Shown: positions 36,136 through 51,677 of the stretch, piece after piece | Position numbering within the stretch: position 1 is the stretch's first letter | Layout of the letters: each line of letters opens with the position of its first letter | Assembly: GCA_024637115.1 (NCBI GenBank) | Contig: JAGXFU010000014.1 | Location: forward strand, 6,524 to 70,523 | DNA from: Actinomycetes bacterium | Lineage (GTDB): Bacteria > Actinomycetota > Coriobacteriia > Anaerosomatales > JAGXFU01 | Length of the DNA: 64,000 bases | Direction of reading: 5' to 3' | Program-made: the position numbers and the translations under genes | Notes under the pieces: model-generated | Told to the model about the DNA's origin: nothing | Database searches by the model: none | Seen by the model: only the letters and a program-made list of their open reading frames with translations

Positions 36136-36200
36136 GCCGAGAAGTATACCCGTGCCGGGGCAGCGGACAGCATGTGTGACGGAGCCGTATACTCTCGAGC

Positions 36201-36635
36201 ATGGACGCTTTGGTGATATGCATCGGGAACAAGGCGCGCGGGGACGACGGCGTAGCCAGACTGGTTGGGGAACTCCTCGAGTCGAGGCTCCCCGCCGGTG
36301 TCACGCTCATCAACGAACCACAGCTCGATATCGTAATGGCCGAGGAGATCGCGCAGGCGCGTTTCGTGGCCTTCGTTGATGCCGAGCGTCGCAACGATCC
36401 GCCCGTGGCGGTAGACGACGTTGTAGCGGGCACAGCAGGCACACACGCACACGCCATCGACCCGCCGGGCCTTCTCTCGCTCGCAACCACCCTCTATGGG
36501 GCCGCTCCCCCGACGGTACTGGTCAGTGTCGCAGGCCCGCACATGGGGCATGGCGAAGGACTCTCACACACAGCACGGGCCGCCTCCGAAGAAGCGGCCC
36601 GCGTTACGCTCGAACTACTTGACCAAACGCGCTAG
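36201..36635 (+). CDS. Hydrogenase maturation endopeptidase (HycI/HoxW/HyaD family)
   Basis: IGNKARGDDGV, FVDA, HAH; adjacent to the [NiFe] hydrogenase genes. Confidence 0.85.
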   Translation: MDALVICIGNKARGDDGVARLVGELLESRLPAGVTLINEPQLDIVMAEEIAQARFVAFVDAERRNDPPVAVDDVVAGTAGTHAHAIDPPGLLSLATTLYGAAPPTVLVSVAGPHMGHGEGLSHTARAASEEAARVTLELLDQTR

Positions 36636-36877
36636 CGTCCCATCGAGTTCCACTGTCGAAGCGCTTCTTCTGCACCCGAAGCGCCCCACATATCGACCAC
36701 TCGCTGATCGCTCGTGATCGCTTTGCACAACTTCTCGTATCCAGTTGCATCCATGCCCATGGTATTGGCGCCGGACGCGTTTGATGCTGAGGCGACGATC
36801 AACATCGCCACCGCCTTGCCGAAACTCGACTCGAGTCTCGTGCGTACATGGTTCTCGAAGGCGGCCTGATACTCCAT
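36632..36877 (-). CDS. Hypothetical 81-aa protein, last gene of the hydrogenase operon
   Basis: ATG directly abuts the large-subunit TAA (TAAATG); purine-rich SD within the upstream gene. Confidence 0.7.
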   Translation of the reverse strand: MEYQAAFENHVRTRLESSFGKAVAMLIVASASNASGANTMGMDATGYEKLCKAITSDQRVVDMWGASGAEEALRQWNSMGR

Positions 36878-38293
36878 TTACACCGCCCCCCTTTCTGCGA
36901 CGACCGTCCCGTCAGGATCGATCATCTCAACAACGAGCGGCATGCGACCAATCTCATGCGTCGCACAGCTGAGACACGGGTCATGCGCTCTGATGCCCAG
37001 CTCCATACGACGAACGGTTGCATCGGACATCGCCTCGTCCTTACCGGCAGAACGCACCGCTTCAAGAACGACTCCGTCAAGCGAGGCCACATTATGCGTG
37101 GTCGCAACGATGAGATTCGCGGCAGTGACGCGCCCGACGTCATCGGCCTCGTAGTGATGAATAAGCGTGCCCCGGGGTGCTTCGATCGAAGCGATTCCCG
37201 TTCCCGGACCGCGCTCCACCTTGACGCGCACGTTATCGGAGCAGATCTCGGGATCGGAAAGGATCGTTTCCATCTTTTCGTAGCAAGCGACCAGTTCGAT
37301 CATGCGAGCCCAGTGATAGGCGAGCACCGCATGAACCGGACGTCCAAGCTCTGAGCGGAAGGCCGCGAGCATCTCGCTCGAGACGGGCCCGGGCATAGAC
37401 TCAGCGAGGTTCAGTCGCGCCAGAGGACCAACGCGATACGATCCGCGCTCCGGTCCACGCGACGTGAGGAACGGTGACTTCGCATAGCTATAGGGCAGTA
37501 CGCGCTCGGTGATGCGATTCATGTAGTCCGAGGCATCGAAGCGATCTTCGATTCGTCCATCCTCGGCCATCACAGCGATTGAGCCGTCATAGAGCTCAAA
37601 CTCTCCGTTGGCTCCGAGTGTGGACATCAATGGCATTGGCGTACGGCCGTATCCGTCGTTCGCATCGAGTAGCCGGAGCGTAGACTCGCGTGCGAGATCG
37701 GCAGCCGCCACCGCATCAGACATGCCGTCGTGAACCATCTCAAGCATCTCGTCGCGCTGTTCGGCGGTGATGCCCTTGCTCATGCCGCCCGGTATCGCCG
37801 TGACCGGATGACTTGAACGTCCACCGACCATCTTGACGATGGTCTGCCCTGTCTTGCGCAGATGGATTGCTCGTGCAGCCAGGTCGGGACGCGCCTGGAT
37901 GACCCCAAGGATGTCCCGACTACCCGCGCCGTCACCGGTGAGGAAATCGGGTCCTGCGAGGAAGAAGAAGTGCAGCGCATGATCTTGCGACGTGGCACCG
38001 AGATGCATGAGTTCGCGAAGCAGTCGCGCAGCCCTCGGAATCTCGACGCCATACAGGGCGTCTACCGCCTTGACCGCTGCGAGATGGTGAGTCACCGGAC
38101 ACACGCCGCAGATGCGACTCGTGATGAGCGGCATCTCCCAAATCATCCGACCCTTGAGCATCTTCTCGAAACCACGGAACTCTGTGATATCGAAGTGGGC
38201 GTTCTCTACCTGGCCACTGTCATCGAGGAACAACGAGACTCGGCCATGGCCTTCGATACGTTTGACGGACGGGAGTCTGACGACCTCAGGCAT
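36878..38293 (-). CDS. mvhA: [NiFe]-hydrogenase large subunit, group 3c (MvhA-like)
   Basis: RIEGHG, EFRGFEK, L1 RICGVC, L2 DPCLSCATH plus a 25-aa cleavable tail, [11 protein letters not shown]. Confidence 0.88.
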
Positions 38294-39170
38294 CCTCATC
38301 ACCCCCATGGTCGTAGGCTTCTGGGAACACGGACACCGGCATCGAGAATCGATATCCGGTGCCGACTAGATCGTCAAGGAACATGATGGCTCCTGCCGGT
38401 AGCACCGCTGCAAGCGCATCGATCATCTTGGCACCCTGTTCAAAATCGTGACGGCTCGGGCCATGGCACCCGCGGCACGGAACGCCTGCACCCGTGCAGA
38501 GCGCGCCGCAACCTTCTCGGGTCATCGGCCCCATGCAGATGACGCCCTGTTCCAGGAAACACAGTGCCGGATCGATCTCATCAAGTTCCATGATCCCGTA
38601 CACGGCATCCGTGAGGAACTCCGCTGTCGGCTCGAGCAGTGCTCGCTTCTCGCGAGCGCACTCGTCGCACAAGTTGCGTCGAGGCAGATCCAAATCCCGC
38701 CCTTCGACCACGTTGGTCAGAGCCGAGATGATCGCCTCAGTCTCCGGCGCACAGCCAGGGATCGAGATATCGACCTCAACGACGTCAGAGAGCGCCTTGA
38801 CGCGACGGGTCAGCTTGGGCAGCCCTTCGCTGGGCTTGTCCTCACCGTAGACGTCTTCGAGCACTTCTCGCGTGGGATACAAGTTGCGCAGCCCACCGAT
38901 GCCTCCGAGAACCGCACAAGATCCCAACGCGATAAGTGTCTTGGATGCAGCGCGCGCGGCGAGCAGCTTTCGCTCGTCCATTTCAGTCGTGACAGCACCT
39001 TCCACGATAACGACATCACATTCAGTCAAGTCGTCCTCTGCGAGAATCGGAGAAGCGACCAACTCAACCTTGCCGAGGAGGTCTAGAAGGCCCTCGCCAG
39101 CGTCGAGCAGGGAAACGTAGCATCCCTCGCAGCCACCAAGAACGACGTGAGCCAATCTCGGTTTACTCAT
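38286..39170 (-). CDS. mvhG: [NiFe]-hydrogenase small subunit (MvhG-like)
   Basis: GCEGC, GSCA, PGCAP, CDEC, CFLEQG, CMGPMT, GCGALC, PCRGCHG. Confidence 0.88.
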
Positions 39171-40777
39171 TGCGGGCCTCCTTTCCCATTGTCGAAACTA
39201 CCGATACTGGTGAATACCTCATTGACCTGTTCAACGAATCTCTCGCCCTCGAATGGGGAGATATCGATGATTCGCAAACGCCCGTCGTCGATGTTGCGAG
39301 AACGAAGGACCGTGCGCAGCAGGTTGATTCGGCGATCCATGTCAAGATTGCCGATGAGATTGTGGCAGTGGCCCTCGCGGCACCTGAAAACGGTAACGCC
39401 GTCAAAGCCCTGCTTGAACGCCTCAAGCACATAAAGCGTATCGAGTCGTCCTCCACAGGGAATGCGGATCGGCAGGAATGAAGCCGGATACGATCCGTTG
39501 CCTGCCTGAACAGACACGCTCGCATGATCGCCTGCAGGATAACCACATCCGCCGCATAGGAATCCGACAACTTTGTCCCCGCCCTGCGTATCTACCTCCG
39601 CAAGCGTGCGAATGGCTCCAATGAGGTAGTCATGCGGTGAGTTCACGATATCCCGCGCACCCACAGGGCAGGAGACTACGCATTTCCCACAACCCCGGCA
39701 GCGACGAATATCCACATGGGACAGACCGTCCTCACCAATGCTGCAAGCTCCGAATGCGCATGTCTTTACGCACGATGCGCACCCACCGCAGAGCGTCTCA
39801 TCGACCTGCGAGACATCAACGAAGTGGACGGTCTTGGGTTGCGAGAGCTTCAACACAAGAGCGAGCGCCGCAGAATCGGCGGCTGACACCTTTGTTGCAA
39901 TCTCTTCTGAGGCCCCGCGAATCGGCACGACCATGATGCCCGAGTCGACTGTTTCGGCAGGATGCGTACTTGGATCAATGGATCGCGCACGACCCTGATC
40001 ATCGATGTCAACCTTGAAGTGCTGACGCAACTCCTCGATCCACCCCGGTTCATCGGGGCGCGCAAGCAGCAAGCCGCCCACTCTGAACATCGCACTGCCC
40101 GTTGGAGCAGCCAGAGTGACGGAGTAGTCTCCGAGCCATCCGCTGCCATCAGAGAGACGGGCATCATCCACAAACTCAGCATTCGGGTGACCCGATACGA
40201 ACGATACGGTCGCCTTGAGATTCGCGCTGTCCTGGACACTTCGAAGGCCGGCTCCCCTGTCGGCAACGACGACCTTATAGCCGAGTTGCAGGAGTCGCTG
40301 AGCGGCAACCATGCCCTCAGTCGTGGCGCCAAGGATCAGAACCGAATGCTTTGGGTCGGTCTCGATGCCCTCAACGACCGGTGCCAGCGTTGCCCGCAGA
40401 CTGGCAACCTGAATCAGGGCTCGTGCCTTCGAGGTGGCGCCCACCGGATCGTCTGCGTGCACCAAGGCGACCTGCTCAAGGACATTAGCCGCAATCACAC
40501 GATTCGGATTGAGCCCCGCGTCGATCAGTCTCTGCTTGAGGTGTTGCCCCGAAAGACTCCGGGTGTAGTGCTCGATGGAATGCCCCGCGAGTACCACAGC
40601 ATCGAGATCGGCGTCGGAGATATCGCGAATCATCCGTTCTTGAGCGGCAGGATCGAAGAAGTCTTCAAAGACCCTTACGACCGCCGCTGTCTCATCCATG
40701 CCCTCGATCGCGGCGTCAACATCGACGATACCGTCGAGCTGACCCGAGCACCGGGACACATACAGGCCTAGTGGCAC
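39167..40777 (-). CDS. Degenerate HdrA/QmoB-like scaffold fused to a 2x[4Fe-4S] ferredoxin and an MvhD [2Fe-2S] domain
   Basis: HdrA-like GLNPN, NVLEQVALVH and ATSKA; CGGCASCVKTC and CRGCGKCVVSC; MvhD GFLCGGC, RIPCGGR, CREGHCH. Confidence 0.8.
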   Translation of the reverse strand: MPLGLYVSRCSGQLDGIVDVDAAIEGMDETAAVVRVFEDFFDPAAQERMIRDISDADLDAVVLAGHSIEHYTRSLSGQHLKQRLIDAGLNPNRVIAANVLEQVALVHADDPVGATSKARALIQVASLRATLAPVVEGIETDPKHSVLILGATTEGMVAAQRLLQLGYKVVVADRGAGLRSVQDSANLKATVSFVSGHPNAEFVDDARLSDGSGWLGDYSVTLAAPTGSAMFRVGGLLLARPDEPGWIEELRQHFKVDIDDQGRARSIDPSTHPAETVDSGIMVVPIRGASEEIATKVSAADSAALALVLKLSQPKTVHFVDVSQVDETLCGGCASCVKTCAFGACSIGEDGLSHVDIRRCRGCGKCVVSCPVGARDIVNSPHDYLIGAIRTLAEVDTQGGDKVVGFLCGGCGYPAGDHASVSVQAGNGSYPASFLPIRIPCGGRLDTLYVLEAFKQGFDGVTVFRCREGHCHNLIGNLDMDRRINLLRTVLRSRNIDDGRLRIIDISPFEGERFVEQVNEVFTSIGSFDNGKGGPQ

Positions 40778-41033: not shown

Positions 41034-42086
41034 CTAGCCTTCAACGAGGCGGAGTATCTCCTCGGCAATGCCGTGGACAGGCAGAACGGTATCTACGCCG
41101 CCGAGATCCGCAGCTGCTTTAGGCATGCCCCAGACCGTAGAGGTCTTCTCATCCTGAGCGATCGTCGCGCCGCCGATGTCGTGCAGGTACTTCAGACCGC
41201 GCGCGCCGTCGGCGCCCATTCCCGTGAGGATGACCCCCACCGCACTGCGTCCGACAGAGCGGGCGACGCTCTCAAAGAGAGTGTCTGCCGACGGGATATA
41301 GAGCTGTCCCTCAAGCGGCTCGGTATGACGTATCGTGAGTCCATCCATGGAGAGATTGCGCCCCGTTGGCGCGAGATATGCCGCTCCGGGCTCCACATCC
41401 TGCCCGGGCTTGGCCTCACGCACAGAGATCTTGCATCCTGAGTCAAGCCAACTCACGAGGCCGGGCACAAAGCCATCAGCAATGTGCTGTGCGATCACGA
41501 TCGGTACCGGAAACTCCGGGGTCAACCTACCGAGGATCGCCAGCAGGGCCGAAGGCCCGCCTGTCGATGAGCCGATCGCGACCATCGAACGACCACCAAG
41601 GCGCGTTGGCCCTGTGGGAGTACCCAGAGTATGTGGAGATGGTTTGGGGCGCCTACCCGTGATGTGTGTGATTACACGAATCCGCGAGAGCACTTTGACC
41701 TTGCGGATGACTTCTTTTCCGATCGTTTCGAGATCCGCCCAATCGCGAGGCTCAGGTTTCTTGATGACTTCAAGCGCACCTCGCGCCAAAGCGTCGAACG
41801 CCCGTCCCATGCCTTCGCCATACACTGAGGACGAAACCACAAGAATCGGCGTGGGCGTGTACGCCATGATCTTCTCGGTGGCCTCGAGCCCGTCGACTTT
41901 GGGCATGTGGATATCCATAGTGACGAGATCGGGCCTCAACTGGGCAACGGCGTCGATTGCTTCCTGCCCATCTCGAACCATACCGACGACATCGATCTCA
42001 GGGTCGGTCGAGAGTATCTGGGCGAGCATCTCCCTGGCGACGAGGGAATCGTCGACTATGAGCACGCGAATCGTACGAGCAGACAT
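41034..42086 (-). CDS. cheB: Chemotaxis methylesterase CheB (REC + methylesterase)
   Basis: LIVDDS, TMDIHMP, GSSTGG, QHI, LTGMGADGA. Confidence 0.95.
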   Translation of the reverse strand: MSARTIRVLIVDDSLVAREMLAQILSTDPEIDVVGMVRDGQEAIDAVAQLRPDLVTMDIHMPKVDGLEATEKIMAYTPTPILVVSSSVYGEGMGRAFDALARGALEVIKKPEPRDWADLETIGKEVIRKVKVLSRIRVITHITGRRPKPSPHTLGTPTGPTRLGGRSMVAIGSSTGGPSALLAILGRLTPEFPVPIVIAQHIADGFVPGLVSWLDSGCKISVREAKPGQDVEPGAAYLAPTGRNLSMDGLTIRHTEPLEGQLYIPSADTLFESVARSVGRSAVGVILTGMGADGARGLKYLHDIGGATIAQDEKTSTVWGMPKAAADLGGVDTVLPVHGIAEEILRLVEG

Positions 42087-42100
42087 ATGGCTTCCCACCA

Positions 42101-44446
42101 CTAGCGGATGAGCCGCTCAACAGTATCAAGCAGCGTATCCTGATTGAAGACCGACTTGGTGATATACGCTTCGGCACCGGCCTCGATACCTTCGGCCTTT
42201 TCCTCATCTCGCTCAAGTGATGTGACAATGATGACCGGGATGTTCAGCAGCTGTGGGTCGTTCTTGATCGCGCGCGTAAGCTGGAACCCGGTCATATTGG
42301 GCATCTGTACGTCGGTGATCACCGCATCCGGCTCCAGGCCTTCACGGAGCTTCTGTAGACCCTGTGCCCCGTCCATGGCGACCTCGACTTCATAGCCCGC
42401 GGCCTCGAAAATGGACCTCTCGAGTTCTCTCGTGGTGAATGAGTCCTCGCAAATGAGGACTCTTCTGGGCCCGCTGCTCTCCTTCTCGGCAGTCATCTGA
42501 CCGTACGTGCGCTGGCCGGAACGATGACGGGCGTTGTCCATCAGGTCGGGCACATTGAGAATCGGCACCACCTCGCCGGCGCCGAGAATCGTGACTCCCG
42601 CCACGTTCACGACCTTGTGAAGATGCGACCCCAACGTCTTGATAACAATCTGTTGCTCACCCACGAGCGCATCGACAATGAAGCCCATTCGATGACCCGA
42701 GAAGCCAATAGTCGCTATGGGAATCTTGGCGCCCTCAAACCCGTGACCGGGCACGCCGAGGATATCGGTGAGTCGCACGAGAGGAACCGTTCTGCGCTGC
42801 CTGCGAATCACCTCGCGACCTTCGATCTTGATGATCTCTGAAGGATCCACCCTGAGGGTTTCCTCGACCGAAGCCGTTGGAAGTGCGTACATGCGATCGC
42901 CCACCCGGAGCATGAGCGCCCGAATGATTGCCAGCGTCAGAGGGATGGTGAGCCTGAACGTGGTTCCTTTGCCCATCTCACTCTGAACATCAAGAGAACC
43001 TTTGAGCTTCTCCACGATGAATTCGCGAACGACATCCATGCCCACGCCGCGACCCGATATCTCGGTGATGATCGCCGCAGTCGAGAAGCCCTTCTCAAAG
43101 ATCAGGTATGTGGCTTCCCTATCAGTCAGCGCGCTGGCCTCGGATTCAGAAATATAGCCCTTGCGCACCGCAGCTGCTCGAACCTTGTCCGGATCGATGC
43201 CCCGTCCGTCGTCGGAAATCTCAATGACGATGTGATCGCCCTCTTGACGCGCGGACATGCGAATCGTGCCCTTCGCCGGTTTGCCAAGCTCAACTCGGTC
43301 GGCGGCAGGCTCAAGTCCGTGATCTACCGCATTGCGCATGATGTGAACAAGGGGATCGTTGATCTCTTCGAGAACCTTCTTATCGAGCTCCGTGTCTCCA
43401 CCCTCAAGAACCAGCTCAACATCCTTCTTGAACGAGCGCGCAAGATCGCGCATCGCCCGGGGGAATGCCTGAAAGACCGTGGAGACAGGAAGCATGCGTA
43501 GCCGCATACCCTGCTCCTGAAGATCCGTCACAACGATCGAGGTTCTGGAGACGTCATCGTTGTAACCCTTAAGGAATCCGGTTTGAGCGCGCCTGCGGTC
43601 CACGAGGTATCCGTCGAGAGTGCTCACTTCATCCATGATCGAGAGCATCATGCCATCGTCATCAACGGGCACTGAATTCAGCAGCGACTTCAATCTAAGC
43701 CACGCTTGCCAGATATCGGTCAGATCATTGGCCGCCTGCCGCAGCTCGACCGTACGCTGCTCGTCCTTGATCTGAGCGATGACTACTTCGCTCACCAAGT
43801 TCAGAAGCGTGTCGATCTGCGCAGTCTTGACCCGGATCGTCGGCTGAACCTTCGCCTTGAGCGAATCCTCGCGTTGTGCCTGGCGAGATACGCCGTCACC
43901 GGAGGTCTCATCGTCGTGCACGTCCTCCAGGTCATCGACCGCTTCATCACCATCGTCGTATTCCTCGGAGGAATCAGACTCAGCCGGAGGTGCAGGTGCA
44001 GGCACAGCAGTCTCGGTCGCGACTGTCGTTTCAGGCGTACCGGCAGCGGCTTCTGCTCCACCCGCTGCCAGAGCAGACAAACGAGTCTGGAGCGCGTCGA
44101 GGTCGATCTCGAGCTTGATGTCTTTTCCGGCGTTCTCCGCCAGGTACACGATCGCGTCGAGCGCTTCAAAGAAGTAGTCGCTCATATCCGGCGTGTACTT
44201 CATCTCGCCTTCGCGCACGCGAATCATGAAGTCCTCAAGCCGATGTGCGATGTCAGATATCTCAATCAGACCGACCATACGGGAGGAGCCCTTGACCGTA
44301 TGTGCGTCGCGCATCATCTGATCGATGAGCTCTCGATTTCCCGGGTCCATCTCCAGTTGGATAACGCCTTCGTTCAGGCGCTGCAGAAGATCCTGCGCTT
44401 CCTCCTGAAACTTCCCAATAAACGCACTACGGTCGAACTCGACCAT
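42101..44446 (-). CDS. cheA: Hybrid CheA histidine kinase (Hpt-dimer-HATPase-CheW-REC)
   Basis: AHTVKGSSRM, HIMRNAVDHG, DDGRGID, GRGVGMDVV, CheW domain, C-terminal REC (TDVQMP). Confidence 0.95.
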   Translation of the reverse strand: MVEFDRSAFIGKFQEEAQDLLQRLNEGVIQLEMDPGNRELIDQMMRDAHTVKGSSRMVGLIEISDIAHRLEDFMIRVREGEMKYTPDMSDYFFEALDAIVYLAENAGKDIKLEIDLDALQTRLSALAAGGAEAAAGTPETTVATETAVPAPAPPAESDSSEEYDDGDEAVDDLEDVHDDETSGDGVSRQAQREDSLKAKVQPTIRVKTAQIDTLLNLVSEVVIAQIKDEQRTVELRQAANDLTDIWQAWLRLKSLLNSVPVDDDGMMLSIMDEVSTLDGYLVDRRRAQTGFLKGYNDDVSRTSIVVTDLQEQGMRLRMLPVSTVFQAFPRAMRDLARSFKKDVELVLEGGDTELDKKVLEEINDPLVHIMRNAVDHGLEPAADRVELGKPAKGTIRMSARQEGDHIVIEISDDGRGIDPDKVRAAAVRKGYISESEASALTDREATYLIFEKGFSTAAIITEISGRGVGMDVVREFIVEKLKGSLDVQSEMGKGTTFRLTIPLTLAIIRALMLRVGDRMYALPTASVEETLRVDPSEIIKIEGREVIRRQRRTVPLVRLTDILGVPGHGFEGAKIPIATIGFSGHRMGFIVDALVGEQQIVIKTLGSHLHKVVNVAGVTILGAGEVVPILNVPDLMDNARHRSGQRTYGQMTAEKESSGPRRVLICEDSFTTRELERSIFEAAGYEVEVAMDGAQGLQKLREGLEPDAVITDVQMPNMTGFQLTRAIKNDPQLLNIPVIIVTSLERDEEKAEGIEAGAEAYITKSVFNQDTLLDTVERLIR

Positions 44447-44476: not shown

Positions 44477-45712
44477 CTAGTCGATGATTTGAAATGCGGA
44501 ACCGACCTGTGCCGATTCCTTTGCAATTGCAGACAGCTGCTCGGCTGAGCCTGCGACCTGTCGTCCGCCTGCAGCGGTCTGCTGGGCAACCGCAGCGACC
44601 TCTCGCATTGCTTTGACGACTTGATCCGTGGCGCTCTTTTGCTGCTGAGTCGCCGCAGAGATCTCTTTGGCAGCAACGGTAGTCTGTTCGATCATCTCAA
44701 GAATCTGGTCGAGAGACTCACCAGTCATGTGCGCGAGATCAACGCCGCCCTGTACCTGCTTGAGTTCTTGCTCGGTCGCGATGACAAGATCGTTCGCGGC
44801 ACCCTGAATCTCGATCATGATCGTCGAGATCTCGCTCGTAGAGTCAACCACTGACTCCGCAAGCTTTCTGATCTCGATAGCGACAACGGAGAAGCCCTTC
44901 CCGGCTTCTCCCGCGCGCGCGGCTTCGATAGCGGCATTGAGAGCGAGGATCTTTGTCTGATCGGCGATCGAGTTGATGATCTCCAGGACCTGACCGATCT
45001 GCTGACTACGCTCGCCGAGCGATAGGATCTTGTTCGCAGACGTCTGACTACGAGTCTTGATGTCTTCCATAGCGGTAAGGGTATTGAGTACCGCCTGCTG
45101 TCCCGATTCCGCACTACCGAGGGATGCCTCTGCCATGTTGACGACCTGGTTGGCATTGTCGGCAATCTGACGGTAGGTTGCTGCGAGCTCTTCCATCGTT
45201 GCCGTTGTCTGGCTGATCGATGCGGCCTGCTCGGCCGAGCCTGATGCTTGCTCCTCGGTGGCTGAGAGAATCTCGTTCGATGCCTGAGCGAGTCGCCTTG
45301 AAGACTCCTGGGTCTGCCTGATCAGATAGACGATGAGATCCAGCATCTGGTTGTACGACGTGGCAAGGACACCGAACTCGTCCTCGGACTTCACATTGAC
45401 CTTCAGACCGATCTCTCCCTGGCAGGCCGCCTTCACGCTCTCAACGACGTGCTCGAGCGGTGCCATGAAACGCTTGCCGACCTTGATGAAGGCCATCATC
45501 CAGGCGAAGCCGAGCACAATGATCGCAAGGACCAGAGCACCTACCTCGACAACTGAGACGTCCGCGAACGCAGAGCCGATATCCCCACCGGTAAGAATAA
45601 TCATGGCAATGGTCCACTGAAGGGCGTTGAACACAAGGAACAGCCCGGCGATTGCCAGTGAGTACTTCCACAGGAACTTGCTGCGGAACTTGCCGACTAT
45701 CGATGAAAACAT
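44477..45712 (-). CDS. Methyl-accepting chemotaxis protein (2 TM, tiny external loop, HAMP)
   Basis: [46 protein letters not shown] methylation sites. Confidence 0.93.
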
Positions 45713-45735: not shown

Positions 45736-46293
45736 CTACGAATTTGCAACGATCGGTTCAAGAATCCGATCGATATTGACAAGACCAATCAGCCGACTCT
45801 CCCAGTACACAGAGCCAGCAATGAACTCAGCTGAGACTTTGTCCATCACCGAAAGTGGCGGCTCAACCCCCTCGCGTGGAATATCGAGGATGTCACCGAT
45901 TTCATCGACAACGATCGCAGTGGTGCACTCCTCATTCTGAATGACGATCGCAGGAGCTAGAGCGATGTCCGACGTGAGCTGGCCCAGACGCATGAGTTTC
46001 GCGACGTCCATCACGGAGATGATCTCTCCTCTGATGTTCACAACACCGAGAATGAACTCAGGCACGCACGGAATCGGAGTGATCGCGTACTCCTGATAGA
46101 TCTCTCGAACATCAGAGACGTAGACCGCGTACCACTCGTCACCCAGACGAAAGAGCAGGATGCCCACACTATCTCCGACGTCCTCGCCAGTAGCTTCATG
46201 GGCAAGGGAATCGGCCCTGCGGGCAAGCACCTCATCCGCAGTCGCCGCGATAGACGAACCGGGAACCAATCCACGTTCTACGATCTCCGCCAT
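45736..46293 (-). CDS. cheW: CheW adaptor
   Basis: LLFRLGDEWYA, ITPIPCVPEFILGVVNIRGEII. Confidence 0.92.
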   Translation of the reverse strand: MAEIVERGLVPGSSIAATADEVLARRADSLAHEATGEDVGDSVGILLFRLGDEWYAVYVSDVREIYQEYAITPIPCVPEFILGVVNIRGEIISVMDVAKLMRLGQLTSDIALAPAIVIQNEECTTAIVVDEIGDILDIPREGVEPPLSVMDKVSAEFIAGSVYWESRLIGLVNIDRILEPIVANS

Positions 46294-46296
46294 GAG

Positions 46297-47007
46297 CTAG
46301 TACCCTCCCCCGACGAGATTGATCGACGCAAGCAGCCGATCGACGTCGAGCAGATACACAAGCTGATTGTCCATTCGACACACACCGATCATACGATCCG
46401 CGAGTCCGTGCATCTTGGGCGGTGCCGCAAGACATCCCTCGGGTAGCCCGACCACATCCTCGACCTCGTCAACCAGAAGCGCGACGAGTTGGCCGTGCGA
46501 CCTGCAGATAATCATAGGTGTATCGAGATGATACTCCTGTGATGTCATACCGAGCAGTGTTCTGATGTCGAGCGCGGGGATGACCTGTCCGCGAAGATTG
46601 ATCATGCCAACGAGACCGTGTCCTGAAGATGGCACCTGAGAGAATGCCACAATCTGCTGGATCTCTTGAACGCTGTCAATGCCGATCGAGTAGCGCTGAT
46701 CCGCAAGATGAAAGACGATCATCTTGTCGATCATCGCTTCCATTGAATCCTCAACAGGTGACGGCGTGACGTTCTCCGCCCCCGCGACTTCAACAGGGAT
46801 AGCATCCTTCTGGGGTGCATCCACGGACACGGGCGCCTCCACGGTCTCTTGCGGGACTTCTTTGACAGGCTGAGCTTCCGCTGTCGCTTCTGATGCTGAC
46901 TTGGTCGCCTTCACTGGTTTCGGCTTCTTGCCGACCTTCTCTTTAGCCTTCGCCTTCTTGCCGGGCTTGGGCTTGGGCTCATCATCTGTCTTCTTGCGTG
47001 TCGCCAT
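46297..47007 (-). CDS. cheW: CheW adaptor with Lys-rich N-terminal extension
   Basis: FHLADQRYSI, GMINLRGQVIP; about 90-aa N-terminal low-complexity region. Confidence 0.88.
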   Translation of the reverse strand: MATRKKTDDEPKPKPGKKAKAKEKVGKKPKPVKATKSASEATAEAQPVKEVPQETVEAPVSVDAPQKDAIPVEVAGAENVTPSPVEDSMEAMIDKMIVFHLADQRYSIGIDSVQEIQQIVAFSQVPSSGHGLVGMINLRGQVIPALDIRTLLGMTSQEYHLDTPMIICRSHGQLVALLVDEVEDVVGLPEGCLAAPPKMHGLADRMIGVCRMDNQLVYLLDVDRLLASINLVGGGY

Positions 47008-47011
47008 TGAC

Positions 47012-48913
47012 TCACTCCGCGAATCTCAGTACGCGGTTGAGCTCTTCTGCACTCACGAGCCCCGACCTGACCTTTGCGAGACCTGAAGTCACCATCGGTC
47101 GCATGCCTGCCGCCTGTGCCGAGGCCGCGATCTCCTCGGCAGAATCGGCCCGTGAAATGCGTGTGCGAACCGATTCGGTGAACGGTAGGACTTCGAAGAT
47201 GCCCGTGGCACCCTGGAATCCAGACTGCGCGCACGTGGCGCATCCACGACCGACCTTGGAGACGAGGCCTTCCTCGGCACCGGGAATAGTTGCGGCCATG
47301 ACGCCATCGTCATCCGAGGTGCAGTGCGGACAGTTCATGCGTACAAGCCGCTGCCCCACGCCAAGCGTAAGTGCCGAGGAGAGAGAAACCGGCTCGGCAC
47401 CGAGATCGAGCATGCGACGCACGCCTGAGACGATGTCCCCACCGCTGAACGTCGCAATCACGAGCTTCCCAAGGCCAGCCGCTTCGACGGCCAGGTGAAC
47501 ATCCTCAACGGACTGCATCGCGTCGATCGCCATGACATCGGTATCCTGACGGATTCCGGCCGCGAAATACGACTCGGCGCCGACCGACTCACCCGGATTC
47601 ACCAACACCTGGGCTACAGCCGGAATCTCATAGTCGATCGAGCGCTCGACGGAGTAGACGGTCTTTCCAACTTTCGCGGCATGGTTGAGGAGCGCATAGT
47701 ACGTGGAGCTGCGTCCACCTGCAACCGGGCCGCATACCAGAAGGAGCCCACGCCCACGCTCGACCATCGCATGCAGTGCACGTACCTCGGCTTCGTTCAT
47801 ACCGAGCTCAGCAAGCCCGCGTGGGACAGGCTTGTCGGAGGTGAGCGTCAAGACCACACGCTGACCCGCAACGGTTGGAACCGCTGAGACGGTGACCACC
47901 AGATCGCGATCGGCGATCTTAGCTTTCACCCGACCAAGGGCAGGCCGAGAAGACTGCACCGAGGATAGACGCGCGTAGCTCTTGAATCCGTCAACGAGCG
48001 CCGACTGCATCGAGAGTGGAGCGCTGGCTATCTTCTCAAGTTTGCCGCCGACACGATAGACGAGGAAGAAGTCTTCCTTGTACGGCAGGAGGTGAATACG
48101 GCCGACGCCGCGTCGGACAGCATGGTCGAGAATCTCAGAAACGAGTCCGGCGACCTTGCGGGCATCGGCAACGGCAAGCACGTCGAGATCGATCTCTGGA
48201 GGTCCATCCGGCGCAGCGGTCTCAACGACTTCCTCGATACCCTGCGTGGGCTCGGGGAGATCAGGCGGTTCCTGGGCAGGTATCTGAGCCACTACGGGCG
48301 TTGACTCGGTCAGCGGGGCTTCAAAGAAGTCACCCGCGTCGATCTCGGTGTCGACTCCGAGGAAATCCTCCACACTCGGGGCCGGAGACAGAACATGTTC
48401 AGTCGATTCGGCGGTTTCGGGCATCGCTCCGACTTCGGGCTCAAATGCAGGAGCGGCCGGTACCGACTCTCCTGGAGCGTCTTCGTAGTACTGGTCGATC
48501 GCACGGGTGACGTCACCAGCATCAGAAAGGACTGCCTCGACCTCCAGACCGAGCTCAACGGCGAGGGAATCAAGCTTGAACACGTCCATCGCATCCCCGA
48601 TGACTACCGTGAGCATGCCCTCGATCTCAAAGAGCGGCAGCACACTTCTGCTCCTGGCAAGCGATACCGGAAGCAGGAGAAGCGCCTCGCTATCGGGCGC
48701 ATAGCTGGATAGGTCGACTCGAGGTATGCCCAGATCCTCTTCCATGGCACTCTCGAGATCCGCCGATGTGACGATGCCGCGCTGTAACAGGACATCGCCC
48801 ACAGTGATTCCAGCGCTCGCCGCCGCTTCGATGATCGAGGAGATTTGCTCGACCGTAAGCAAGCCGGCATTCACCAGCGCATCAAGAACCCTGGATGTGA
48901 TTGTTTCCGACAT
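47012..48913 (-). CDS. PilB/GspE-family protein with degenerate ATPase motifs (predicted pseudo-ATPase)
   Basis: T2SSE_N-like N-terminus, RQD, QRLVR, CPHC...CATC, GIFE; Walker A is GPVAGGRS. Confidence 0.85.
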   Translation of the reverse strand: MSETITSRVLDALVNAGLLTVEQISSIIEAAASAGITVGDVLLQRGIVTSADLESAMEEDLGIPRVDLSSYAPDSEALLLLPVSLARSRSVLPLFEIEGMLTVVIGDAMDVFKLDSLAVELGLEVEAVLSDAGDVTRAIDQYYEDAPGESVPAAPAFEPEVGAMPETAESTEHVLSPAPSVEDFLGVDTEIDAGDFFEAPLTESTPVVAQIPAQEPPDLPEPTQGIEEVVETAAPDGPPEIDLDVLAVADARKVAGLVSEILDHAVRRGVGRIHLLPYKEDFFLVYRVGGKLEKIASAPLSMQSALVDGFKSYARLSSVQSSRPALGRVKAKIADRDLVVTVSAVPTVAGQRVVLTLTSDKPVPRGLAELGMNEAEVRALHAMVERGRGLLLVCGPVAGGRSSTYYALLNHAAKVGKTVYSVERSIDYEIPAVAQVLVNPGESVGAESYFAAGIRQDTDVMAIDAMQSVEDVHLAVEAAGLGKLVIATFSGGDIVSGVRRMLDLGAEPVSLSSALTLGVGQRLVRMNCPHCTSDDDGVMAATIPGAEEGLVSKVGRGCATCAQSGFQGATGIFEVLPFTESVRTRISRADSAEEIAASAQAAGMRPMVTSGLAKVRSGLVSAEELNRVLRFAE

Positions 48914-48927
48914 GACGTCAGCCCGAT

Positions 48928-49308
48928 CTAGCCGGTGACCTTATCGAGCTCCTCGGCAACCGCCGATAGAAGCCTTTCAGGCTCGATCGGCTTAGTGAGG
49001 TACTGGTTGGCGCCGGTTCGGATACCCGTTGCCATTGCCTGCTCCTCGGTCTTAGCCGTGAGCATGATGATTGGAATTCCTTTGTACTTCTGGTCAAACT
49101 TGAGAAGACGGCACACTCGGTACCCGTCAAGTTTGGGGAGCATGACATCGAGCAGGATCAAGTCAGGCATCTCTGCCCGAGCCTTCTCCAACGCCTCGGC
49201 GCCGTCGGCAGCAGTGATGACCTCGTAGCCGCCCGATATCAAGATCGCCTTGATCATCTCAAGGATGGTCGGGCTGTCATCGACCGCAAGGATGCGCGCG
49301 TTCGCCAT
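48928..49308 (-). CDS. Single-domain response regulator (CheY-like)
   Basis: AVDDS, LLDVMLP, MLTA, YLTKP. Confidence 0.93.
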   Translation of the reverse strand: MANARILAVDDSPTILEMIKAILISGGYEVITAADGAEALEKARAEMPDLILLDVMLPKLDGYRVCRLLKFDQKYKGIPIIMLTAKTEEQAMATGIRTGANQYLTKPIEPERLLSAVAEELDKVTG

Positions 49309-49347: not shown

Positions 49348-50916
49348 CTATCGCCTTTCCGGCGGGGCATCTTTAGGTCGTAAACTGCCCTTTCGACACT
49401 CTATCAGACTACGCTCGCAGGTCTTAGCCAAAAGGTCGGGTCTGAACCCGCCCAGAAACACCGTCCACTCGCCCTCGGGATTCTCGTACAAGTAGCGCAT
49501 CGTATTCTCATATTCACGGCATGCGCTGTCCTCGGCACCCTGGTGTTTATAGAGGTTCGCCAGAGAGAAATGTGCAAGGACGAACGCGGGGTCGATGTAG
49601 ATCGTCTTCTTGAGCTCCGAGATGGCTCGAACCGAGTCACCTTGCTGCTGGTAGATGATACCGAGCACATAGCGAGCCGCAGGCAGAAGCGGCTCGATTG
49701 CGAGCGCCCGTTGACACTCGGCGATCGCGGCATCCATCTGCCCGCTGTCCGCATGGGCGAACGCCGTAAGCAGGTACGCCTGTGGGTTGTTCGAATCGAG
49801 TTCCAAGACGGCCGAAGCGGCCTCGAGAACCGCTGCCGTGCGACCATCCACAGACGCCTCCCGCGCGGCACGCAGGAGTGATTCGATTTCGCCCGCCACG
49901 TCACCGGCCGATTCGGACGGAATGAGTACGGGTTGTGGTTTATCGACACCCGGAGGCAACACAGGGCGTCGAGGTTCTGTACGCTTTCTGGCACGCCTGC
50001 GCGCAGCCGCCGCCGGCGTGGTCTCCCGCATCGAGACCGCCTCGGCAAAGTTGTAGTGCTTCTTTGGGAATGGTTTTCGATAGAGGAATACGCCCCCGAC
50101 CTCAACGGCCTCGAATCTGTCCGAGATGCTGGTGAGCGTCTCGGAGTGACCGATGAACAGATAGCCACCCGGATTGAGACTGTCGAAGAAGTTGTTGACC
50201 ACGCGTCGCGTTGATTCCAGGCGAAAGTAGATCGTGACGTTGCGGCAGAAGATCACATCCCAATTCCCCATGAGCGCGAGCGGATATGGCTCCTTGATGA
50301 GATTCTGGTACTGAAAGGTCGTGAGCTTGCGTACCTTGTCGACAACTCGGTGTCCGTGAGCGGTGGGCTCAAAGAACCGCGTTGACGAGGAGGTGGGAAC
50401 GCTCAGGAGCCCCCGAGCCGGATAGACACCGGCTTTGGCCTTGAGCAGCGCATTCGTTGACACATCTGTGCCCAGCACCTCGAGCTTGTACCCAAACGGC
50501 TCCAGGCCGGAGTCCAACAGCGTCATCGCGATCGAATAGGGCTCCTCGCCAGTCGAACAACCCGCCGACCAGACACGGAAGTGACGATCGTATTCGCCTT
50601 TGCTTTCCATGATCTGAGGAATGATCTGCGTGCGAAGCGCCTCAAACTGTGCGGGGAATCGAAAGAAGCTCGTCTCGTTGATCGTGACGAGGTTCATAAG
50701 CTCTTTGAATTCCTCTTCATCTGACGTGAGCATCGCGAAGTAGTCAGCAAGAGAGTCGAATCCAAACCGCGTTGCGCGCGTGATGAGCGAAATCCTGAGC
50801 GAATCGGATTTCTGCTCCTCCAGGAAGATGCCAGAATGCTTATGTATGTAGTCCCTGAATCGACCGAACTCCTCGGGAGTAAGGTCTTTAGAGAGGCTTT
50901 CGCCGTTTCCGGGCAT
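49348..50916 (-). CDS. cheR: CheR methyltransferase with C-terminal TPR repeats (WspC/FrzF-like)
   Basis: INETSFFR, WSAGCSTGEEPYS, FCRNVTIYF, TPR helices. Confidence 0.93.
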   Translation of the reverse strand: MPGNGESLSKDLTPEEFGRFRDYIHKHSGIFLEEQKSDSLRISLITRATRFGFDSLADYFAMLTSDEEEFKELMNLVTINETSFFRFPAQFEALRTQIIPQIMESKGEYDRHFRVWSAGCSTGEEPYSIAMTLLDSGLEPFGYKLEVLGTDVSTNALLKAKAGVYPARGLLSVPTSSSTRFFEPTAHGHRVVDKVRKLTTFQYQNLIKEPYPLALMGNWDVIFCRNVTIYFRLESTRRVVNNFFDSLNPGGYLFIGHSETLTSISDRFEAVEVGGVFLYRKPFPKKHYNFAEAVSMRETTPAAAARRRARKRTEPRRPVLPPGVDKPQPVLIPSESAGDVAGEIESLLRAAREASVDGRTAAVLEAASAVLELDSNNPQAYLLTAFAHADSGQMDAAIAECQRALAIEPLLPAARYVLGIIYQQQGDSVRAISELKKTIYIDPAFVLAHFSLANLYKHQGAEDSACREYENTMRYLYENPEGEWTVFLGGFRPDLLAKTCERSLIECRKGSLRPKDAPPERR

Positions 50917-50927
50917 GTCGCCCCCCG

Positions 50928-51677
50928 CTATTCCGCGATCGAGACTTCGTCGGATGCACCGAGCTTCTCAATCAAACCAGCCGCAAACATCCCGTAGAGG
51001 ATTCTGGCTGTCTCAAAATCGTTGTAGCCGGTCAACTCAACGAGCTCACGGACAGTCCTGCCACCGTGCAGGAAACACAAGAGCATCCACTCTTTGGGCT
51101 TCAGATGAATCTCCATGGACTTGTCGCCGGGGGCAGAGGCCATGATAAAACGTGTATCCATGGAGGGAATCTTCTGACGGATTCGATTCCACAGTTCAAG
51201 GCGACGAGCCGCCTCCATGATGATGTTCTCAACAGATACCGAGATGCCGATGTCCTCGTCTTCACACGCCTCATCGGCCTCGAAACGCAGCTCCCCCTCT
51301 TCCCAGCGAAAGAGATCGAACAGCGTGTCATTGATCTGCTCCTGAATGAAGTTCTCAAGTACTTTTGAATCGAGATAGCCCTCGTCGACAAGAATCTGAC
51401 CCAGCCGGCGATTGGCCTTTTCCTTCTTCTGAATCTTTTGCAGACCCAGTGCCTGACGCAACTGCTTCTCGGAGATGACGCCCGCCTTGACCAGGCGACG
51501 CCCAAGCGACTCCCGGTTCCAGTTGCTCGACGCAAAGAACACTCGGCCCTTCTTGATGCAGACCTTGCCTTCGGCATCCGGGCGCTCCATGTACAGCGTG
51601 CCGGTCTTGCGACCGGAAGAAAGCAGCCGAAACATGTCTTCGAGCGAAAAGTCCCTGAGATTGCCCTCGAGTGCCAC
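50928..51677 (-). CDS. DUF4388 (PATAN-like) protein with internal MshEN-like tandem motif
   Basis: LEGNLRDFSLEDMFRLL, KTGTL, LFRWEEGELRF; SLGRRLVKAGVI...ALGLQ and RLGQILVDEGYL...IQEQ. Confidence 0.85.
   Translation of the reverse strand: MALEGNLRDFSLEDMFRLLSSGRKTGTLYMERPDAEGKVCIKKGRVFFASSNWNRESLGRRLVKAGVISEKQLRQALGLQKIQKKEKANRRLGQILVDEGYLDSKVLENFIQEQINDTLFDLFRWEEGELRFEADEACEDEDIGISVSVENIIMEAARRLELWNRIRQKIPSMDTRFIMASAPGDKSMEIHLKPKEWMLLCFLHGGRTVRELVELTGYNDFETARILYGMFAAGLIEKLGASDEVSIAE

Follow-up and report, generated by a model that had tools for sequence, protein, structure and literature searches.

A PilB paralogue in a chemosensory operon

The window, a 64,000-nucleotide stretch of contig JAGXFU010000014.1 from an Anaerosomatales genome, carries a chemosensory operon that includes a gene for a PilB/GspE paralogue. 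The nine genes, in operon order, are as follows.

50928..51677, minus strand: stand-alone PATAN/DUF4388 protein, the first gene of the operon (Pfam DUF4388, 117 bits)
49348..50916, minus strand: CheR methyltransferase with C-terminal TPR (Pfam)
48928..49308, minus strand: CheY-like single-domain receiver, 14 nt upstream of the PilB paralogue gene (Pfam)
47012..48913, minus strand: PilB/GspE paralogue, 633 aa (open reading frame with ATG start, Pfam, alignment)
46297..47007, minus strand: CheW, Lys-rich in its N-terminal tail, beginning 4 nt past the stop codon of the PilB paralogue gene
45736..46293, minus strand: second CheW (Pfam)
44477..45712, minus strand: MCP with two hydrophobic, TM-like segments separated by a loop of ~15 aa, HAMP and signalling domain
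42101..44446, minus strand: hybrid CheA with Hpt, dimerisation, HATPase, CheW-like and REC domains (Pfam)
41034..42101, minus strand: CheB with REC and methylesterase domains (Pfam)

This gene order is identical in 80 of 80 loci wherever the contig reaches, with the PilB paralogue flanked by cheY and cheW in every one of them, and the regions flanking the operon differ. Chance resemblance or misassembly was rejected, as 80 independent assemblies all show the gene in this operon. The CheY-like receiver is the most conserved protein of the operon, with 78-96% identity in the 77 loci where it was found. Promoter and terminator scans yielded 3 and 10 sites, respectively, compared with shuffle means of 3.9 and 7.3, none of them above chance. 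The non-flagellar Tfp and ACF classes of Wuichet and Zhulin reportedly combine a hybrid CheA-REC, CheR-TPR and several CheW proteins with an absence of flagellar genes; the operon analyzed here encodes a hybrid CheA-REC, CheR-TPR and two CheW proteins in a genome lacking FliG.

Domain architecture and fold

The PilB paralogue shares its domain order with PilB, PilF and GspE (5TSG/5TSH, T. thermophilus PilF and V. cholerae EpsE) and comprises the following regions.

48743..48913, minus strand: aa 1-57, N-terminal helical half of MshEN, c-di-GMP motif degenerate (NF053729; AF2 helices 5-59)
48473..48742, minus strand: aa 58-147, alpha/beta half of MshEN/N1 (invariant alignment columns, Pfam MshEN, dN/dS 0.03-0.15)
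48194..48472, minus strand: aa 148-240, acidic, Pro/Ala-rich disordered linker of variable length (pLDDT <50, gappy alignment)
47819..48193, minus strand: aa 241-365, N2 domain, both arginine fingers gone (alignment to PilB_Gm)
47339..47818, minus strand: aa 366-525, former ATPase core (motifs mapped, dN/dS 0.01-0.07)
47015..47338, minus strand: aa 526-633, tetracysteine zinc module (C528, C531, C558 and C561) and C-terminal helices

Both Pfam T2SSE (PF00437, residues 250-627, 205.9-207.7 bits, cut-off 24.9) and Pfam MshEN (PF05157, residues 61-147, 56.4 bits, cut-off 23.1) match the protein, with a PF00437 score of 207.7 bits compared with 428-462 bits for the canonical PilBs of the same genome. 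PilB/PilF/GspE, including Geobacter metallireducens PilB (PilB_Gm), is the best sequence match class (1e-70), at an identity of only about 28-30%. Scores fall below the cut-offs of both the PilB equivalog TIGR02538 (280.9 bits, cut-off 675.65) and the GspE model TIGR02533 (260.7 bits, cut-off 630.25). A single-chain AF2 model yields a confident PilB-like fold (pLDDT 86.8), with lower pLDDT at the P-loop (76), and its top Foldseek matches are PilB_Gm (5tsh), PilF and EpsE, with PDB 4pht also among the matches. Within the broad family, residues 58-147 (LGIPRVDLSSYAPD...LPLFEIEG.LTV) are best conserved, down to 31% identity.

Loss of catalytic residues and retention of the pocket

Residues were mapped by alignment of the PilB paralogue to G. 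metallireducens PilB (5tsg), and alignment columns were counted in 120 homologues. The altered motif strings and coordinates given by the initial annotation were all correct, each substitution being confirmed against 5tsg. The motifs of the former ATPase core are listed below; GRIHLLP (271-277), PALGR (324-328) and GQRVVLT (350-356) are further altered strings, whereas RQD (455-457), QRLVR (521-525), CPHC (528) and CATC (558) are kept.

47708-47731, minus strand: P-loop GPVAGGRS, aa 395-402
47633-47653, minus strand: Asp box SVERSID, aa 421-427
minus strand: Walker B VMAIDAMQS, with DAMQS at aa 464-468
47444-47473, minus strand: His box LGKLVIATFS, aa 481-490

The Walker A lysine K331 corresponds to R401 (Arg in 100 of the 120 homologues, Ala in 15, Ser in 3, Val and Gly in one each), and S402 at the Walker A Ser/Thr position is invariant; GPVAGGRS hence departs from the GxxxxGK[ST] pattern of PilT-like secretion ATPases. 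Their hhhhG pattern followed by a catalytic glutamate is likewise lacking, the glycine of the atypical Walker B being replaced by an invariant D464 and the catalytic E395 by Ser, Ala, Gly, Pro or Thr (Glu in only 4/120). Within the Asp box, the equivalent of E353 (E423) is invariant, Arg takes the place of D354, and the position of the Mg ligand E357 is D427 (Glu or Asp in 119/120). The His-box residue H413 has become K483 (Lys in 117, Arg in 3 homologues), and H420 is replaced by Ser, Ala or Pro. Both arginine fingers, identified as R271 and R286 in the PilB_Gm structure paper, are substituted, R271 by T341 (Thr in 119/120) and R286 by T356 (Ser, Thr or Gln among homologues), and they are gone in deep branches of the family too. 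The arginine of the PQDGR motif is distinct from the arginine fingers; it is kept as an invariant R328.

The same altered motifs recur, near-invariant, in all 120 homologues, which excludes chance. The initial claim that every catalytic motif is altered thus holds at the level of motifs but does not extend to the pocket, where S402, E423 and D427 survive. Its assertion that the zinc motif is retained was borne out, with all four cysteines of the predicted metal site invariant (120/120). Arg401 and Arg467 are mutually exclusive: R467 occurs in 18 homologues, none of which has R401, and R401 in 100, none of which has R467, so that one positive charge is kept in the pocket. On the tree this swap goes back to just 2-4 events, too few for an independent-pairs test, and therefore carries no statistical weight. 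P-loops of the wider family are acidic or small (SPIGEGASE, APAANGAAA, APAGQSVGD).

Purifying selection and single origin

A single, stop-free copy of the PilB paralogue gene is present in 87 of 93 sampled Anaerosomatales genomes, covering 18 families. Rates were estimated from close pairs only, since distant pairs are unreliable in GC-rich genomes, where dS is saturated or composition-biased. Whole-gene dN/dS amounts to 0.06-0.17 (11 close pairs), the same range as for CheA, CheR, CheB and MCP, and gives no indication of neutral decay in the comparison across orthologues suggested alongside the initial annotation. Constraint is strongest in the former ATPase core (0.01-0.07), and the linker shows the highest values (0.08-0.41). 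With zero stops in 87 genomes and dN/dS far below 1, pseudogene decay was rejected. Order-wide conservation, near-invariant altered motifs, dN/dS and the PilB-like fold strongly support the view that the PilB paralogue is a maintained pseudoenzyme, not a pseudogene. Since the former active site is most constrained and keeps invariant polar residues, "pseudo-ATPase" should be read as non-hydrolysing rather than ligand-free.

Phylogenetic analysis places the PilB-paralogue family in one clade, separated from canonical PilBs by a deep split with 99% support, revealing a single origin from PilB-like ancestors. A canonical PilB with divergent annotation was rejected by equivalog scores, motif mapping and this tree. 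Deep, low-GC branches still possess the Walker A lysine or the Walker B Asp-Glu, and in their operons a gene for a Ras/Arf-like small GTPase adjoins PATAN; two divergent representatives belong to a different class within the phylum and have low GC. One intermediate member of the family, encoded in GCA_015711795.1, carries both the Walker A lysine and the Walker B Asp-Glu. The six Anaerosomatales genomes without the PilB paralogue also lack the orthologous CheA and keep canonical PilBs. The protein has lost its catalytic residues, evolves under purifying selection, and is fixed in its operon and lost together with it.

c-di-GMP motif and pilus genes

The initial annotation had proposed a split of functions, with an MshEN motif degenerate in the PilB paralogue and intact in the DUF4388 protein. 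Scores of NCBIfam NF053729, which describes the tandem RLGxx(L/V/I)(L/V/I)xxG...Q motif (cut-off 38 bits), agree with this proposal: the PilB paralogue, carrying R-V-L instead of R-L-G and missing the terminal Gln, remains below the cut-off (30.2-31.8 bits), whereas an insertion in the PATAN protein carries the MshE-type motif (47.6 bits). The three canonical PilBs of the genome score 58.2, 39.6 and 64.6 bits. The stand-alone PATAN protein is probably c-di-GMP-responsive.

Besides these three PilBs, the genome encodes PilT and one PilC, the sole pilC sharing a different contig with pilB and pilT. Unlike members of the PilB/GspE clade, the PilB paralogue sits in a che operon and not with pilC, pilM or pilins, none of which adjoins it; its catalytic motifs are replaced and it belongs to the separate clade described above. 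As no pilus gene lies next to the PilB paralogue, it is by homology and analogy that the protein is connected with pili. Cultured members of the Anaerosomatales are reported as non-motile, rod-shaped and coated with pili-like appendages (PMC9686372), and the controlled output may therefore not be motility. Abundant pili have been observed on Fe(III) minerals in isolates of Anaerosomatales (OPB41).

Discussion

The genomic context speaks for an adaptor within the che pathway. On balance we lean towards reading the PilB paralogue as an adaptor without catalytic function that connects CheY~P/PATAN to the type IV pilus machinery. In this view, a paralogue of the extension ATPase PilB that does not hydrolyse ATP would have become a core subunit of a chemosensory pathway, keeping the PilB architecture (N1/MshEN, disordered linker, N2, RecA-like CTD and zinc module) and shedding the parts that would convert ATP binding to work, namely the Walker A lysine, the catalytic glutamate, the arginine fingers and the His-box histidines. 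PilB-like surfaces, above all the conserved N1, may dock at PilB's site on the pilus base or onto PilB itself, and the adjacent CheY~P and the stand-alone PATAN protein may control this docking. Output of the MCP/CheA array could thereby gate or position pilus assembly in non-flagellated, heavily piliated bacteria. Which proteins it binds, which way the signal runs and how pili are affected are inferred in this model. Against an adaptor, within Anaerosomatales the ATPase core and not N1 is under the strongest constraint, a pattern that a specific ligand pocket or an oligomer interface would explain no less well than simple docking.

Archaeal CheF/ArlCDE adaptors and ArlH link CheY~P to a type IV filament motor with a PilB homologue, and ArlH, which binds nucleotide but hydrolyses it poorly, partners the motor ATPase. 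Their folds are, however, unrelated to the PilB paralogue (ArlH is KaiC-like), and they are archaeal and coupled to rotation, not to pilus assembly. In Synechocystis, PatA-type (PATAN-REC) Tax regulators likewise combine PATAN and CheY in a chemotaxis-like operon, which controls type IV pili, and PATAN domains bind PilC and the N-terminal part of PilB1 (bioRxiv 10.1101/2021.06.11.447907); here PATAN is unfused to REC, and the operon appears from its sequence to bring its own catalytically dead PilB-like protein. In Xanthomonas and Pseudomonas, c-di-GMP receptors and CheY-like proteins act on PilB (PilZ-FimX-PilB, and PilG/PilH of Pil-Chp), controlling pilus extension and polarity (PMC8389850, PMC10519157), but these regulators target active PilB, and a pseudo-ATPase intermediary has not been described. 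The idea that the nucleotide state or conformation of a PilB, and not motor work, may serve as a regulatory signal has a parallel in M. xanthus PilB (PMC5544727), where an active motor moonlights, whereas the protein described here is a dedicated paralogue, probably without catalysis.

A further-reaching possibility, which we advance tentatively and deem on the less probable side, is a new type of chemosensory pathway in which a non-hydrolysing PilB-like ring would be the obligatory hub. CheY~P and a c-di-GMP-sensing PATAN (ancestrally also a Ras-like GTPase) would act on this pseudo-motor, a second input would come from a small ligand bound by the pocket (S402, E423, D464, K483, and R401 or R467), and the ring would compete with PilB/PilT for, or position them on, the single PilC.

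A ligand-gated switch is compatible with the adaptor, yet as the primary function we rate it unlikely. The remodelled pocket would bind a nucleotide or other anionic ligand (ATP or ADP without turnover, GTP, c-di-GMP or (p)ppGpp), and occupancy would set a conformation or oligomeric state read by the che proteins. The lowest dN/dS of the protein in its core, the invariance or near-invariance of G400, S402, E423, D/E427, D464 and K483, the new acid D464, which occupies the classical Walker B site (Gly in PilT-like ATPases), and the single positive charge kept by the Arg401/Arg467 exclusivity all speak for such a pocket. The few events behind the arginine swap and the lower pLDDT of the P-loop weaken this reading, the acidic or small P-loops of the wider family argue against family-wide phosphate binding, and core constraint is equally explicable by hexamer interfaces.

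The PilB fold might instead serve as a hub of the array, or as an effector of another output such as exopolysaccharide, adhesion or development, which we consider quite unlikely. The gene's location, with cheY on one side and two cheW on the other at spacings of 4-14 nt, would suit such a scaffold, as would an MCP without sensory ectodomain and a hybrid CheA, resembling Wsp/Frz-type systems, and in M. xanthus exopolysaccharide production receives a signal from PilB that does not depend on pilus assembly (PMC5544727). However, N1 is kept, the domain which in GspE touches the machine (GspL; PDB 4pht), and the associations with PATAN and small GTPases indicate pilus or polarity modules: some mglA genes lie near PATAN-domain genes, as described by Wuichet and Sogaard-Andersen, and in Myxococcus the polarity of motility and the placement of PilB/PilT are under the control of MglA-family GTPases (PMC4316618).

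Distinctly doubtful is a poison or regulatory subunit, in line with the dominant-negative idea of the initial annotation, forming mixed hexamers with one of the three active PilBs and so throttling extension. Retention of the N2 and CTD folds, of an interface-forming architecture and of the zinc module would permit it, the genome offers three canonical PilBs for one PilC, and, with the arginine fingers missing, the subunits of a mixed ring would no longer cooperate; the low identity to canonical PilBs and the deep split nevertheless render interface compatibility doubtful, and the operon partners are che proteins rather than pilB. Residual ATP hydrolysis via the substitutes Arg401, Asp464 and Lys483 is highly improbable despite a P-loop whose length is correct and which includes S402, a pair of acids in the Asp box and an aspartate at the classical Walker B site. 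No acid follows Walker B (Glu in only 4 of 120), both arginine fingers and the gamma-phosphate histidine are missing, and 20 of the 120 homologues have Ala, Ser, Val or Gly instead of Arg401.

No published description of a degenerate PilB in a chemosensory operon was found in searches of the literature on PilB, PATAN and chemosensory proteins; a review of PilB cofactors mentions no such protein, and the paper describing Anaerosomatales (PMC9686372) mentions neither PilB nor chemotaxis genes. The route from chemotaxis-like pathways to the type IV pilus is unclear even in Pseudomonas, Myxococcus and cyanobacteria, and a PilB-shaped protein inside a signalling operon offers a concrete, testable physical link. 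The family moreover constitutes a natural series, from members that keep the Walker A lysine and Asp-Glu without arginine fingers or His box to fully degenerate ones, which can separate the binding from the catalysis parts of a secretion ATPase. Homologues are annotated in databases as "ATPase, T2SS/T4P/T4SS family", "PilB" or "TadA", annotations that are misleading for metabolic and motility inference. The family also serves as a near-universal marker for the Anaerosomatales (OPB41), bacteria that are widespread in the subsurface.

A PilB-like protein without its catalytic residues

P0001, a degenerate PilB/GspE paralogue, is encoded in the window as follows.

47012-48913, (-), open ORF with ATG start, 633 aa

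The start codon lies 14 nt past the stop of a cheY-like gene and the stop codon 4 nt before a cheW gene. Pfam places MshEN (N1) at residues 61-147 and T2SSE at 250-627. The AlphaFold2 model, obtained with the family alignment as input, reached a pLDDT of 86.8, with all domains above 90 and a disordered linker at 148-221, and its nearest folds in Foldseek are Geobacter metallireducens PilB (PilB_Gm), PilF and EpsE. Domain models assign P0001 to the T2SSE superfamily. As it falls below the PilB and GspE equivalog thresholds and fails five defining catalytic features, it should be filed as neither. In the literature, we found no account of a che operon that includes a catalytically dead PilB paralogue.

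In PilB_Gm, phosphate binding falls to Walker A (GxxxxGK[ST]) and catalysis to the Glu that follows Walker B. PilT-like ATPases have Gly in place of the Walker B acid, a role that Asp-box E357 fills by coordinating Mg. R271 and R286 act as arginine fingers; T411, H413 and H420 make up the His box, the last of them contacting the gamma-phosphate (bioRxiv 10.1101/082750). Residues were mapped via the HMMER alignment of P0001 to PilB_Gm (5tsg) and a family alignment of 120 sequences, correcting an offset of 20 between PDB chain and paper numbering.

Table. PilB_Gm residues, their P0001 equivalents and the states in 120 homologues
K331, Walker A Lys; R401; R100, A15, S3, V1, G1
T332, Walker A Thr; S402; invariant
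E353, Asp box; E423; invariant
D354, Asp box; R424; R98, Q9, A5, S5, others 3
E357, Mg ligand; D427; E68, D51, Q1
G394, Walker B; D464; invariant
E395, catalytic Glu; A465; S48, A29, G21, P12, T5, E4, Q1
R271, arginine finger; T341; T119, S1
R286, arginine finger; T356; S106, T9, Q5
H413, His box; K483; K117, R3
H420, His box; S490; S57, A42, P20, T1

By this map, P0001 has lost what it would need to hydrolyse ATP and to let subunits cooperate. The pocket is nevertheless not merely eroded, displaying a fixed set of polar residues that includes a newly gained classical Walker B Asp. The initial annotation had read the ORF as a pseudo-ATPase with every catalytic motif altered; its motif strings and coordinates are exact when checked against the translated ORF, and each replacement is directly visible in the alignment to 5tsg. 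Its listing of PQDGR as altered needs amendment: the string PALGR is correct, yet the Arg is kept (R328) and is neither arginine finger.

Within the family alignment (P0001 numbering), Arg at 401, the Walker A Lys position, and Arg at 467, a position of canonical GEIRD, are mutually exclusive. R401 occurs in 100 sequences, 97 of them with Q467, and all 18 sequences with R467 carry A, S, V or G at 401, a pattern that looks like a charge swap within the pocket.

The initial annotation had also noted that the MshEN-like region of P0001 lacks RLG and Q, which the DUF4388 (PATAN) protein has, and had suggested split functions. Scores against the NCBIfam MshE-type motif model (cut-off 38 bits) fit a division, predicted from motifs only, in which the PATAN protein rather than P0001 would sense c-di-GMP, with 47.6 bits for the PATAN protein versus 30-32 for P0001; the three canonical PilBs of the genome score 58, 40 and 65.

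P0001 is maintained within a che operon

P0001 is gene 4 of nine tightly packed, co-oriented genes in the order PATAN/DUF4388, CheR-TPR, CheY, P0001, CheW, CheW, MCP, CheA-REC, CheB. Tblastn with the nine window proteins recovered the identical order, as far as contigs reach, in 80 of 80 loci from species-representative genomes; flanking genes vary from locus to locus, and CheY is the most conserved operon protein (78-96% identity). In a census of one genome per species, 87 of the 93 genomes sampled from its order, Anaerosomatales/OPB41 (Coriobacteriia; 18 families, 58 genera), have a single copy of P0001 without internal stop codons; it was found in none of 108 genomes from other orders of the class. 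Sequences stem from MAGs throughout, bar two isolates, and the loci include 'Coriobacteriaceae bacterium EMTCatB1' as well as HGW-Actinobacteria and UBA MAGs. All six genomes of the order without P0001 also miss the orthologous CheA (four have only the second-system CheA, two have none), and all six keep canonical PilBs. P0001 and the operon therefore come and go together, and the pilus motors are independent of both. These comparisons establish P0001 as an obligate member of the che operon.

A word-indexed protein search yielded 120 homologues with 54-86% identity (only three below 58%), full length or nearly so and all with altered motifs. Across 11 close genome pairs, NG86 dN/dS of P0001 is 0.06-0.17, with dS near saturation in many pairs; CheA, CheR, CheB and MCP of these loci fall into the same range, and both CheWs lie above it. 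Constraint is weakest in the disordered linker (0.08-0.41) and strongest in the former ATPase core (aa 366-525; 0.01-0.07). The earlier proposal of a maintained rather than decaying gene, to be checked by alignment and dN/dS of orthologues, is borne out by these values, the altered motifs in all homologues and the stop-free ORFs. P0001 thus derives from PilB, is strongly selected and is predicted not to hydrolyse ATP.

Further features were observed in and around the operon.

44477-45712, (-), operon MCP
46297-47007, (-), first CheW
~36200-40777, MvhD/FlpD-ferredoxin gene and [NiFe] hydrogenase small and large subunits, adjoining the operon

Two hydrophobic, TM-like segments of the MCP are only ~15 residues apart, so that there is practically no room for an extracellular sensing domain; the MCP may receive its input via the membrane, HAMP or a partner protein. 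The first CheW has a ~90-aa N-terminal extension, Lys-rich at its start (KKTDDEPKPKPGKKAKAKEKVGKKPKPVK), and the lowest tblastn identities in the operon (36-65%). Identities to the window protein across the 80 loci form two groups for PATAN (~84-91% and ~59-70%) and, in the opposite pattern, for CheY (~86-89% and ~91-96%), which suggests lineage-specific rate shifts in both small proteins. At L011/L081 (contig_12476, long-read 1.2 Mb MAG), the PilB-like gene is intact and CheR, the MCP region, CheA and CheB are broken into several short called genes, most likely by assembly frameshifts rather than decay. The same hydrogenase gene set adjoins the operon at L045:221-4332, in the distant low-GC genome carrying the divergent relative P0147, so that this neighbourhood is conserved across classes.

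Origin from a PilB-like ancestor

When 1.8 billion representatives were searched exhaustively with HMMER, scores dropped in a step from family members (350-733 bits) to canonical PilBs (~220-310 bits), the latter matching P0001 in N2 and the RecA-like CTD only. In a sample of 401 genomes of the phylum, the family profile gave a still sharper separation, with 750-908 bits for members versus at most 350 for the rest. In a maximum-likelihood tree of N2 and CTD, a branch with 99% SH-aLRT support separates all degenerate sequences from 54 canonical ones, among them the PilBs of the window's own genome. Closest to the canonical side are three divergent relatives, P0143, P0147 and P0144. Walker B Asp-Glu is present in all three and the Walker A Lys is kept in P0147 and P0144; both arginine fingers and the His box are already gone. 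P0147 and P0143 are located in the same kind of operon as P0001, in low-GC hosts (G502 and G447, 32-36%) from another class of the same phylum.

Deep-branch operons contain one extra gene of ~170 aa between PATAN and CheR (L156:5529-6044; L045:5526-6038). The L156 product, a Ras/Arf-like small GTPase, scores above the cut-off for Arf (30.7 bits) and has an intact P-loop (GPRGVGKTT); its L045 homologue (26% identity, E 5e-18) reads GPFDAGRIA, with Lys replaced by Arg. No GTPase gene lies between PATAN and CheR in the window, where the gap is 11 nt. Motif states and deep-branch operons together point to a likely order of events, in which a PilB-like gene would have been recruited into a PATAN/GTPase/che operon, arginine fingers and His box were lost early, the Walker A Lys and catalytic Glu later, and the GTPase was lost in Anaerosomatales.

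Pilus motors and a second che system

The window's genome (2.3 Mb, 92% complete) encodes two che clusters, three canonical PilBs, three PilT-like genes, two Tad ATPases, one PilC and a REC-GspE-REC protein; of the PilB/PilT/Tad-type genes in this genome, only P0001 has lost all motifs. The REC-GspE-REC protein (834 aa; locus L004, C13:254702-257206, outside the window) is another PilB-family paralogue, modified in a different way: it is fused to two REC domains and has lost the His box (SRSLVVATMRASD), but Walker A (GPAGSGKT), the Asp box (TIEDPIE) and the Gly-Glu of Walker B are intact. The second che cluster (C1:34474-46970, likewise outside the window) reads CheR-MCP-CheW-CheY-CheB-CheA-CheC-CheD, with a gene for a PilT-like ATPase (C1:34474-35610) a few kb away. 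Since FliG is absent from this genome, pili may be under control of the second cluster as well. Anaerosomatales in culture are rods that lack motility and bear many pili-like appendages, which ferrihydrite induces in Parvivirga (PMC9686372).

A candidate link between chemosensory pathway and pilus

Across the broad family, conservation peaks in aa 58-147, the alpha/beta half of N1, and N1 is the domain by which GspE contacts its machine. In Synechocystis, both PilC and the N-terminal part of PilB1 are binding partners of the PATAN domain (bioRxiv 10.1101/2021.06.11.447907). Small GTPases of the MglA family direct the polarity of motility and the positioning of PilB and PilT in Myxococcus, and some mglA genes are encoded close to PATAN-domain genes (PMC4316618). 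N1 conservation, PATAN binding and mglA-PATAN proximity support a reading that we favor with modest confidence, namely that P0001 may well be a physical link between the che pathway and the pilus machine.

A ligand-gated switch built on the remodelled pocket seems unlikely; the extreme constraint on the core and the mutual exclusion of Arg401 and Arg467 (100 versus 18 sequences) speak for it, but the latter pattern represents just 2-4 events on the tree. It is quite improbable that P0001 is an array scaffold or an output without relation to pili, and we give slightly less credence to a poison subunit in mixed hexamers. A residual enzyme is scarcely credible. If P0001 does link pathway and pilus, CheY~P and the PATAN protein, with or without c-di-GMP, would set its occupancy of the PilB docking site or, alternatively, its binding to PilB itself.
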